From Escherichia phage WPEC1: a stretch of DNA of 64,000 nucleotides. This document shows positions 19,769-21,844 of this stretch, one piece after another. The notes below the pieces were generated by a model. That model made no database searches, was not told where the DNA came from, and was given only the letters and a program-made list of their open reading frames with translations. The stretch's first letter is position 1, and every line of letters starts with the position of its first letter. The translations under genes and the position numbers were made by a program. Location of the stretch: sequence record PV659873.1; one strand, 5' to 3'.

Positions 19769-21844
19769 TTATCTTTTACGGACACTATACGGTTGGTGAA
19801 ATCCGCTGTTCATTCTACTGTATCCTGTAGGAGCATTTGTTGTTGTAGGGATAGCTACTGCTTTGAAAGTATTCTCTTTTGACAGAGTATTAAAACAAGA
19901 GGCAGCAGCATCGGGAATGTCATCTTTAATAGTGGCTGTAGATCTTTCACCATTGAAAGATTCCAATTCTTTATAAAAGTGGGTTAAAGTTTCCACATTA
20001 GGGAAAGAATCTTCAACAATATAAACAAAACCGTTTTGACACGCACTACTAAAAGGCATAAAACGCTGAAGCTTTTTCTTGTTACCTGGCATAGCATCTG
20101 GTTTAACAACAAAACCTTCTAGAATAAGTTTCTTTGCAGACTCTGTGTATTCTATTGTCCCAGCACCAGATGGGTCTTTAGGAAGCACTACTGTAACTTC
20201 TGGTCCATCAATCTTACATTGATTTAGAATCAGGTTATCCCTTTCCCCAGGTAGTCTTCGAAACCTTCCGAAAATTTTACTTTTCTCATCCACAGCATCA
20301 TAATCATAGTCGCCAAAGATGTAGATATTACCATCTTGATCTTTACCCATTTTGACAGATGTTGTATAGTCTGGATAACGGTAAGTTTCTGTAGGAACTG
20401 AAACAGCTTTATCCCATGCTCGCATTAGTTTAAGATTGTTAGGAACATCTTTATAAGATATTTTATGTAACCATTCACGTTGAAAGAAAGATTCTTTCTG
20501 GATACGTGCAAACCAACAACCGTCCAGAAGCTGTGCTCTTTTGATAGCTGTTTGTGATTTAAGTTGTGCTAAGTAATTAGGGTTAAGCCTAATGAGTTCT
20601 GGGTTATCAAATATTGTCCCACCAATAAATACGAAAGTTTGTGGTTCAATAACAACTGTCTCCCCTGTATTAGGGTTTTCCATGAAACAGTTTTCTGGAT
20701 ATTTTTCTTTCAGTTCTTCAGGTGTGTCAGCAAAAACAGGTTCATCGTTAACAATGATGAAATATTTTTGTTTACCACACATATCTTCTCTAGGATAACC
20801 ACCCTCATCAAGATAAGGTAACACCCAATTCAAAACCCAACTATCTGCGTCAGGGTTACATGTGCACAACATGAAACTTGTTTCTGACTCTGAACGCATA
20901 CGTCCCAGAAGATAGAGCATTTCATATTGTGTGAAGTGGGTTAACTCGTCAAAACCTACCATTGAATACTGTGTACCCTGATGGTTTGTTTCTGCTGTTA
21001 CGTTATCATTTTCCAAATGGTCAAATTTGAGGGTTCCACCACCAGTGGCTTCAAAAATGATATCCATTGTACTTTCTTTTACGTGTGGTTGTAAAGGAAG
21101 ATACAAACGTTTTGCTTCTGTAAACAGACCACCTGGTTTACGGTGAGCAGTGGTGTTCTTACGGAAAAGTATTCCACCAAACAAAGGGTCTTTGTAGGCG
21201 TATTTTAAAGCTTTCAGCAATAGCAGACGAGACTTGCCGCTATTCCCAGTAACGAAGCAGTGATCGCCACGTCTAAAGACAATATAGCTGCTTGGAGTCT
21301 CAAAACAATATTTCTTATCATCTGTTGAAATAACCTCGTGTATTTTTAAGTAAGTGCTCTTTTTACCAGGTATGTTAAAAGGAACACGTTTACCGAATGG
21401 ATTTTCTACATAACCTTGCAGGGGTTTTCCTATTTGCTGTAATGCAATAAGATCTCCTACAAGAATCTCGAAATGTTTCTTTGATTTCTTTTTCTTATAG
21501 AATACAAAACGGTGTTCCATACTAAGTTCTTGGAATAATCCTACACCATTTGTTATTCTGTATAGGTTATCTCCATTTAAATCGTATTCTACAAAATAAG
21601 GTGTTACCAATTCTAAACGCTTATTCTTAGGATTGTATTGGTAAATATCCTCTCCCGAATATTCACTAATCTGCCTCCAACCATCTTTTGTAAGATATTC
21701 CGTTTCAGCAGAAACACATCCAGCGGCACCACCATAAATCATAACTTCTGGCATTAAATCCATTGCAAGAGTCTGTTTACCTGGTTGAGCCTTTACCTCA
21801 ATATCTACTCCAGCTAAACTACCTGCTGCCTTTTTCTTTGCCAC
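19769..21844 (-). CDS. terminase large subunit precursor containing an in-frame mini-intein
   Basis: 691 aa; GTG start with AAGGAGG SD; Walker B-like MVGFDE. Removing residues 43-201 joins ...YGGAAG to SGKSRLLL, giving Walker A GAAGSGKS. Confidence 0.7.
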   Translation of the reverse strand: MAKKKAAGSLAGVDIEVKAQPGKQTLAMDLMPEVMIYGGAAGCVSAETEYLTKDGWRQISEYSGEDIYQYNPKNKRLELVTPYFVEYDLNGDNLYRITNGVGLFQELSMEHRFVFYKKKKSKKHFEILVGDLIALQQIGKPLQGYVENPFGKRVPFNIPGKKSTYLKIHEVISTDDKKYCFETPSSYIVFRRGDHCFVTGNSGKSRLLLLKALKYAYKDPLFGGILFRKNTTAHRKPGGLFTEAKRLYLPLQPHVKESTMDIIFEATGGGTLKFDHLENDNVTAETNHQGTQYSMVGFDELTHFTQYEMLYLLGRMRSESETSFMLCTCNPDADSWVLNWVLPYLDEGGYPREDMCGKQKYFIIVNDEPVFADTPEELKEKYPENCFMENPNTGETVVIEPQTFVFIGGTIFDNPELIRLNPNYLAQLKSQTAIKRAQLLDGCWFARIQKESFFQREWLHKISYKDVPNNLKLMRAWDKAVSVPTETYRYPDYTTSVKMGKDQDGNIYIFGDYDYDAVDEKSKIFGRFRRLPGERDNLILNQCKIDGPEVTVVLPKDPSGAGTIEYTESAKKLILEGFVVKPDAMPGNKKKLQRFMPFSSACQNGFVYIVEDSFPNVETLTHFYKELESFNGERSTATIKDDIPDAAASCFNTLSKENTFKAVAIPTTTNAPTGYSRMNSGFHQPYSVRKR
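21242..21718 (-). other. putative mini-intein (Hint domain, no endonuclease domain) in terminase P-loop
   Basis: Starts Cys43 (CVSAETEYLTKDGWRQISE, block A-like), internal MEHRF...ILVGDLIAL (block B-like), ends ...VTGN with Ser at +1; 159 aa. Confidence 0.5.

Follow-up and report, generated by a model that had tools for sequence, protein, structure and literature searches.

A probable mini-intein combining class 1 and class 3 nucleophiles splits the Walker A loop of the large terminase in phAPEC8-like coliphages

How does a phage obtain a working terminase ATPase when the gene for it carries 159 additional codons in the middle of the Walker A motif? This question is raised by Escherichia phage WPEC1 (PV659873.1), a phAPEC8-like E. 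coli myovirus of the genus Phapecoctavirus, from which a 64,000-nucleotide stretch (the window) was analysed. On its minus strand the window encodes a T4-type terminase large subunit (TerL) that is 99.9% identical to the annotated protein of many Phapecoctavirus genomes and is recognized by Pfam Terminase_6N (E=5e-17) from residue 202 of the open reading frame (ORF), at profile position 8. Just before this residue lies an in-frame insert, Cys...Thr-Gly-Asn|Ser, which splits the Walker A motif as GAAG|SGKS. An initial annotation, made from the sequence alone, had read it as a mini-intein at 21242-21718, with a Cys start and an Asn followed by Ser. These coordinates proved exact, corresponding to residues 43-201, and the reading itself is supported by a gap in homologous terminases, a profile match to a solved intein and a Hint-fold model. 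We put at about 0.9 the probability that residues 43-201 are a genuine endonuclease-less mini-intein that excises to restore the Walker A loop of the terminase ATPase.

The host protein provides the first line of evidence. Joining residue 42 to residue 202 gives ...MIYGGAAG-SGKSRLLLLKAL, in which GAAGSGKS conforms to GxxxxGKS; the predicted splice-junction peptide ends ...EVMIYGGAAGSGK, and the junction peptide predicted for tandem mass spectrometry of spliced TerL is QTLAMDLMPEVMIYGGAAGSGK. Searching 5.8 billion proteins for homologues of TerL gave 1,140. Among the best 120 of these, about 50 are full-length terminases (roughly 500-530 amino acids, aa) with an uninterrupted GG[AS]AGSGK[ST], and about 40 have an insert at the identical bond, always C...[T/S]GN|SGKS. 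Alignment to the intein-free terminases, the closest of which among the matches listed are 61-64% identical and 514-517 aa long (P0019-P0021), leaves a clean gap over residues 43-201 with a contiguous P-loop, and the SGKS that invariably follows the insert is present in intein-free homologues too. In silico deletion of the insert extends the Terminase_6N match from 8-214 (62.7 bits) to 1-214 (69.6 bits) and the Terminase_3 match from 64-149 to 4-149. The P-loop anticipated on conceptual excision is thereby confirmed and, by alignment, residues 43-201 are an in-frame insertion whose predicted removal leaves the host sequence contiguous; the gap-free alignment that the initial annotation had named as refuting its reading is not observed. 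Inserts at this bond fall into size classes of 146-159 aa, 246 aa and 301-328 aa. The window extein is more similar to the nearest intein-free terminases than to many intein-bearing ones (e.g. those of Vibrio phages, 45-48%), and such sporadic presence is the pattern expected of a mobile element.

The insert is recognizable as an intein once it is compared as a family. A profile built from 14 TerL inserts matches the AceL NrdHF intein (PDB 6ZGQ) with E=3.5e-12 and, more weakly, RecA, BIL, gp41-1, PolII and DnaB inteins. An AlphaFold2 model of the insert is a bare Hint fold (predicted local distance difference test, pLDDT, 86.4; predicted template modelling score, pTM, 0.79), and a Foldseek search with this model retrieved solely inteins, BIL domains and Hedgehog domains, with 34 matches at E<1e-3. 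In TerL inserts that are 24-32% identical to that of the window, Cys1, Thr6-Glu7 and Gly13-Trp14 of block A, His69 (B:10), Lys-Tyr-Cys138 (F:4), Gly158-Asn159 and the Ser at +1 are invariant, and Thr157 (G:5) nearly so. The residues that flank the two junctions, Cys43, Asn201 and Ser202 in precursor numbering, are likewise invariant in the 14 inserts of the profile. Block B has the T/S-x-x-H of inteins as Ser66-Met-Glu-His69 and aligns to S65-H68-R69-M70 of AceL NrdHF. Taken together, the insert is almost certainly a genuine Hint-fold intein. With 159 aa and a bare Hint model it comprises the splicing domain alone, as in a mini-intein. The features are collected in Table 1.

Table 1. Features of the interrupted terminase gene and of the predicted intein. 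Positions are those of the window.
Feature	Position	Strand	Description
Shine-Dalgarno AAGGAGG	21849-21855	minus	4 nt 5' of the GTG start; read in the sequence
TerL precursor ORF	19769..21844	minus	691 aa, 78.7 kDa, GTG start, stop included in span
N-extein	21719..21844	minus	aa 1-42, end ...MIYGGAAG = first half of Walker A; aligns with intein-free homologues up to GGAAG
Mini-intein (predicted)	21242..21718	minus	TerL aa 43-201, 159 aa, 18.6 kDa; Hint fold without endonuclease domain
Cys1 of intein = TerL Cys43	21716-21718	minus	block A; candidate first nucleophile
Block B, S-M-E-H-R-F	21506..21523	minus	intein Ser66 (B:7), His69 (B:10), Arg70 (B:11), Phe71 (B:12)
Blocks F and G, KKYCFETPSSYIVFRRGDHCFVTGN	21242..21316	minus	Cys138 (F:4, codon 21305-21307), Pro142, Thr157-Gly158-Asn159
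Thr199-Gly200-Asn201 (intein Thr157-Gly158-Asn159)	21242-21250	minus	intein C-terminus
Ser+1 = TerL Ser202	21239-21241	minus	first C-extein residue, in Walker A; proposed acceptor nucleophile
C-extein	19769..21241	minus	aa 202-691, start SGKSRLLLL = second half of Walker A, remaining ATPase and nuclease domain (matches to Terminase_6N, Terminase_6C and TIGR01630)

Is such an intein active? The residue before the terminal Asn (G:6) is usually His and is Gly158 here, which had been taken as a reason to doubt splicing. This doubt is not upheld, as Gly-Asn ends 183 of 186 relatives (described below) and the mutation G145H, which introduces the histidine into AceL NrdHF, abolishes splicing (Hoffmann et al. 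2020, PMC7891396). The wild-type sequence of AceL NrdHF, rebuilt from the supplement of that paper and the PDB alignment, matches both the TerL profile (58.5 bits) and the clade profile (74.4 bits) over its full length, placing C124 on Cys138, V-P on T-P and TGN on TGN. AceL NrdHF splices with a half-time of ~3.8 min, and does so constitutively in E. coli with no precursor left. It begins with Ala1 and is a proven class 3 intein, in which C124A and C124S are dead and the modelled F:4 thiol lies 3.0 Å from the scissile carbonyl; its Arg69 (B:11) contacts the C-scissile carbonyl, and R69A slows splicing (PMC7891396). More generally, many inteins manage without His G:6 because other residues compensate for it, and its restoration can be detrimental to splicing (PMC4031507).

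The likeness between the two inteins extends to Ser B:7, His B:10, Arg B:11, a non-Trp hydrophobic residue at B:12, Cys F:4, Pro F:8 and the Thr-Gly-Asn|Ser end, as well as to the lack of His at both F:13 and G:6 and to a phage-like origin. They differ at the first residue, which is Ala in AceL NrdHF and an invariant Cys in the group of the window intein. AceL NrdHF occurs naturally as two halves separated by a GIY-YIG endonuclease gene and resides in the ribonucleotide reductase (RNR) subunit NrdF at RDE|SxH, whereas the window intein is an unsplit, endonuclease-free one in the Walker A motif of TerL. Judged from its residues, the window intein is very probably splicing-competent.

The inserts in TerL belong to a much wider, little-studied lineage. 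A word-indexed search with the intein profile yielded 8 fragments only, and an exhaustive hidden Markov model (HMM) scan of 1.84 billion representatives was used instead, detecting 10,784 proteins at E<=1e-3, of which 2,456 reached E<=1e-10. From the best 150 listed representatives, together with the 8 fragments, 186 inteins were extracted, 133 of them 300-350 aa long. Their hosts and sites include several GxxG|[S/C/T]GK[S/T] P-loops, an RtcB-like DIG|CGM, a methyltransferase-like FC|CGFGG and the RNR R2 site RDE|SxH. In this sample, which was drawn from the best matches to the TerL-intein profile and is therefore biased toward its signature, Cys1 (one junction corrected) and Cys F:4 each occur in 182 of the 186, His B:10 in all 184 that could be aligned, Ser or Thr B:7 in 177, Arg B:11 in 99 and the penultimate Gly in 183. 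The C-terminus is TGN in 138 and SGN in 27 (Thr or Ser at G:5 in 165), and B:12 is Val, Met, Ile, Leu or Phe, with Trp in 2 only.

The rare losses of a cysteine fall on either side. Four relatives with Gly or Ser at F:4 retain Cys1, and three relatives with Ala1, Pro1 or Lys1 retain Cys F:4, as does AceL NrdHF. Both kinds are found at one insertion site, the RNR R2 motif RDE|[S/C/T]xH, where (Cys1, Cys F:4), (Cys1, Gly F:4) and (Ala1, Cys F:4) alleles occur; at the P-loop site GPFG|SGKS the alleles have Cys1 or Pro1. None of the 186 lacks both cysteines, an absence that is statistically weightless given that each loss has a frequency of ~2%.

Some members or possible members of the lineage lie in other genes. 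The N-terminal half of the window intein matches, at 28-36% identity, in-frame inserts in the RtcB RNA ligase of Corynebacterium phage Lederberg and Pseudomonas phage PS119XW and in the DNA polymerase of Acinetobacter phage ME3. Three metagenomic proteins, P0129 (2602 aa), P0154 (2583 aa) and P0142 (2208 aa), contain several lineage inteins per polypeptide, with up to 7-9 profile stretches, and some of these are back to back (e.g. P0129 1264-1423, then 1435-1580). The RNR intein of Chilo iridescent virus, with block F YCFTEP and a Gly-Gln end, may be another member and serves as a lead only.

Several points weigh against the reading of a genuine, spliced mini-intein, among them the sampling bias noted above. 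Neither Pfam nor NCBIfam yielded a Hint or intein match at E<=1 for the insert or for three of its relatives, and phmmer with the single insert sequence against the PDB gave noise only. Neither of the histidines that commonly promote cyclisation of the Asn, at G:6 and F:13, is present. The ratio of nonsynonymous to synonymous divergence (dN/dS), compared between the window phage, phi92 and Citrobacter phage Tr1, speaks for the intein in being as low there (0.05-0.07) as in the extein (0.035-0.066), but the values are rough since synonymous divergence is near saturation (proportion of synonymous differences, pS, 0.66-0.74). Finally, the sequence does not decide between a Cys1 and a Cys138 route. 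As to the first of the failed searches, Hint homology is visible only via a family profile or a structure model. The search with intein HMMs that the initial annotation had proposed as a check was thus divided in its outcome, negative with curated models and positive with the self-built profile that finds 6ZGQ; the insert has diverged so far from the curated models that a single-sequence check alone would have wrongly refuted the intein.

A splicing pathway can be proposed on this basis. Translation would yield a 78.7-kDa precursor with an interrupted P-loop, presumably unable to bind ATP. The 18.6-kDa Hint domain would then excise itself, joining Gly42 to Ser202 and leaving a 60.1-kDa terminase with GAAGSGKS restored. 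We infer the chemistry from the residues present and from relatives: a thioester would form at Gly42-Cys43, with Cys1 as the most likely initiator, activated by Ser66 and His69; Cys138 (F:4), adjoining the scissile bond, could act either as an indispensable helper or as a thiol relay; Ser+1 would then receive the acyl group; Asn159 would cyclise, with Arg70 (B:11) taking the place of the absent penultimate His in the manner of AceL NrdHF; and an O-to-N shift would finish the peptide bond. Initiation by Cys1 with Cys138 as essential helper or relay is favoured by a modest degree, and redundant or parallel class 1/class 3 routes take up the remainder of the estimate. Pointing to a Cys1 route are the essential invariance of Cys1, the class-1-like S/TxxH at B:7/B:10, the non-Trp residue at B:12 and the retention of Cys1 where F:4 is Gly or Ser.

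The best of the rival explanations, albeit an unlikely one, is that the element is a functional class 3 intein, in which Cys138 would be the obligatory first nucleophile, a block-F branched thioester would be handed to Ser+1 and Cys1 would be chemically dispensable. Two hallmarks of this class, Cys at F:4 and Thr157 at G:5 with Ser+1, are indeed present and had been overlooked by the initial annotation. Two others are not, as class 3 inteins lack Cys, Ser or Thr at position 1 and have Trp at B:12, where the window intein has Cys1 and Phe71; AceL NrdHF, with Met at B:12, is class 3 all the same. This intein, the closest solved and characterised relative, splices by the class 3 route and has an identical S-x-x-H-R / C(F:4) / P / T-G-N|S set (PMC7891396), Cys F:4 and Thr/Ser G:5 are as common in the lineage as counted above, and the natural Ala1, Pro1 and Lys1 alleles all keep Cys F:4. 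An N-terminal Cys, Ser or Thr is moreover described as 'not required' for class 3 splicing, and three inteins with the Trp-Cys-Thr triplet begin with Ser or Cys (PMC5222942, PMC2807308). A dispensable Cys1 would however not be expected in 182 of 186 inteins, and the four alleles with Gly or Ser at F:4 suggest that Cys1 alone can apparently suffice. The B:12 residue in the lineage is Phe, Val or Met rather than Trp, and the existence of class 1 inteins that have Cys F:4 is acknowledged (PMC3196547).

Between these routes, it could tentatively be suggested that the whole lineage is a 'two-thiol' one (Cys1, Cys F:4 and Thr-Gly-Asn), its scaffold being open to both the class 1 and the class 3 route of splicing. 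The mixed alleles at single insertion sites described above favour this, AceL NrdHF being the experimentally proven Ala1 form. If this were true, class 3 splicing would have arisen repeatedly from this lineage and not once, the terminase intein of phAPEC8 and phi92 would represent a living intermediate, and one found in an E. coli phage amenable to genetics, and the paired thiols might render terminase maturation sensitive to redox state or zinc.

A related but distinctly improbable proposal is conditional splicing, in which a disulfide or zinc bound between Cys1 and Cys138 would gate terminase maturation, and hence DNA packaging, late in infection. Because of where the intein sits, a precursor that has not spliced must be inactive, two conserved cysteines are predicted from the geometry of 6ZGQ to flank the scissile bond, and redox or zinc control through catalytic cysteines is known in other inteins, including a class 3 DnaB intein (PMC6195587, PMC7360933). 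Against the proposal, the cytoplasm of E. coli is a reducing environment, constitutive splicing is seen there for AceL NrdHF, and fixation of the mini-intein also has a simple explanation in the difficulty of deleting it precisely from an essential motif. Last, a dead intein or plain inserted domain that is never excised, with a terminase that works with the insert in place or an ATPase supplied otherwise, would agree with the missing penultimate His, the missing endonuclease and the lack of a profile-database match but is very improbable, as GxxxxGK[ST] is interrupted between x3 and x4, the splice-site and catalytic residues are all conserved at 24-32% overall identity, dN/dS is ~0.06, the same residue set is active in AceL NrdHF and no second TerL was seen in the window.

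Turning from mechanism to ancestry, comparison with the larger alleles shows where the mini-intein came from. The supposition that the insert is too small for a homing endonuclease is borne out: the 301-328-aa alleles at the same bond model confidently (pLDDT 87) as LAGLIDADG-bearing inteins, their models matching TliVMA, PI-PfuI, PI-SceI and the LAGLIDADG enzyme I-DmoI, with Pfam LAGLIDADG_3 matches that are sub-threshold. In the ORF list of the window, no other ORF of at least 60 aa overlaps the insert. As these sequences indicate, the window element is an endonuclease-less descendant of a LAGLIDADG homing intein at the same bond, now vertically inherited. The helix LVGDLIALQQ (intein residues 86-95), considered from a MAFFT alignment as a degenerate LAGLIDADG remnant, was rejected because the models of the large inteins have a corresponding helix after block B, at residues 86-95 of those inteins as well and upstream of their endonuclease domain. 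A full-length intein of ~330 aa of the LAGLIDADG type, belonging to the same lineage and inserted at the identical GGAAG|SGKS bond, is seen in Escherichia phage 19-1-2 (OK181858.1, Avunavirus; 2411-5156), the terminase gene of which is likewise split and has an HNH homing endonuclease gene on its downstream side.

Among close relatives of WPEC1 the intein is ubiquitous. At least 30 of the records listed have a TerL of 99.9% identity, and 64 records have one at 99% or more. The intein itself is at least 99% identical in phAPEC8-like phages, ~87% in phi92-like Justusliebigvirus, 83-84% in Klebsiella phages and 79% in Citrobacter phage Tr1, and the gene that bears it is always annotated as a terminase or hypothetical protein only. 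By sequence the intein is fixed throughout the Stephanstirmvirinae (phAPEC8, phi92 and relatives) and never annotated. A six-frame search of the window for other inteins of this lineage found none.

Two observations were made in passing on these relatives. Klebsiella phage FKP3 (PP895363.1, Justusliebigvirus; 2075-4874) has the same mini-intein in a TerL that is broken further downstream into two coding sequences, both called 'terminase large subunit', with ~1.4 kb and an HNH endonuclease gene between them. The interruption resembles an intron or the insertion of a free-standing homing endonuclease, and cluster members of 287 aa and 412 aa fit such a split. In addition, records named 'Campylobacter phage B15/A145' and 'Acinetobacter phage vB_AbaM_ABPW7' (MG065650.1, MG065645.1, OP562383.1) contain TerL and intein sequences 87-99.9% identical to those of E. 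coli Phapecoctavirus and Justusliebigvirus, which suggests mislabelled hosts or contaminating coliphages.

Inteins in the ATPase domains of phage terminases, including their P-loops, are already well documented, and those of phage TerL proteins splice in reporters (Kelley et al. 2016, PMC5050341). The TerL inteins of mycobacteriophages and actinophages (PMC5050341; Gosselin et al. 2025 preprint) share with the present one the large-terminase ATPase domain with its P-loop, the existence of mini and LAGLIDADG forms and a sporadic distribution, and theirs splice efficiently in reporters. They differ in that their host terminases are of another family, mostly Terminase_1, and in their bond, which is the classic site GK|T or one residue away, unlike the G|SGKS site of the window intein three residues upstream of the Lys, and in being canonical class 1 inteins or canonical class 3 inteins with the Trp-Cys-Thr (WCT) triplet. 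No close sequence relationship to the window intein is detectable. The canonical class 3 inteins, such as MP-Be DnaB, Msm DnaBi1 (6BS8) and Mch DnaB1 (6RIX), have Cys F:4, Thr G:5 and Ser/Thr +1 in common with it and prefer the P-loops of phage helicase-like and terminase ATPases (PMC2807308), whereas Cys1, Phe B:12 and Gly G:6 set the window intein apart. Class 1 inteins with Cys F:4 and inteins devoid of the penultimate His also resemble it, and combinations of Cys1 and Cys F:4 are regarded as class 1 and as polyphyletic (PMC3196547, citing Tori and Perler 2011). No biochemical study of an intein that combines Cys1, Cys F:4 and Thr-Gly-Asn was found in the literature.

What is new here is an unannotated intein fixed in a widely sequenced coliphage subfamily at the G|SGKS bond, with a sequence too divergent for curated intein models and a combination of class 1 and class 3 nucleophiles. 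No description of it was found in the literature, the coverage of which was incomplete, and according to a 2024 paper there have been no reports of inteins in coliphages (PMC11162368). Standard domain models miss this intein, and more than 130 sequenced genomes of therapeutic-candidate coliphages and Klebsiella phages (phAPEC8-like and phi92-like) label the gene merely 'terminase large subunit'. With the nucleophiles of both classes in one intein, and an atypical class 3 intein as the closest one characterised, the lineage bears on the origins of class 3. Located in a native essential gene of an E. coli phage, the intein makes splicing, precise deletion and active-site mutants assayable by plaque formation, and fast, small inteins with Ser+1 and Thr-Gly-Asn ends are wanted as ligation reagents.

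A few minor observations concern the gene and its surroundings. A search of spliced TerL against PDB sequences gave no match. The start of TerL is annotated variably across the genus, several GenBank records giving 664 aa from Met28 and not the 691 aa from GTG; the phi92 record annotates the counterpart ribosome-binding site, AGGAGG. Directly upstream of TerL, at 21854-22481 on the minus strand, are two small overlapping ORFs of 114 aa and 130 aa, the former with a lipobox-like LMMTGC, and this pair matches the o-spanin / i-spanin pair annotated in Escherichia phage EF1-1. The window also contains twelve tRNA genes in two arrays and one isolated position (8052-9484, 24544-25015 and 30543-30610), among them two adjacent tRNA-Gln(UUG) genes with a third copy on the opposite strand, and a tRNA-Asn(GUU) call that is unusually long at 86 nt.

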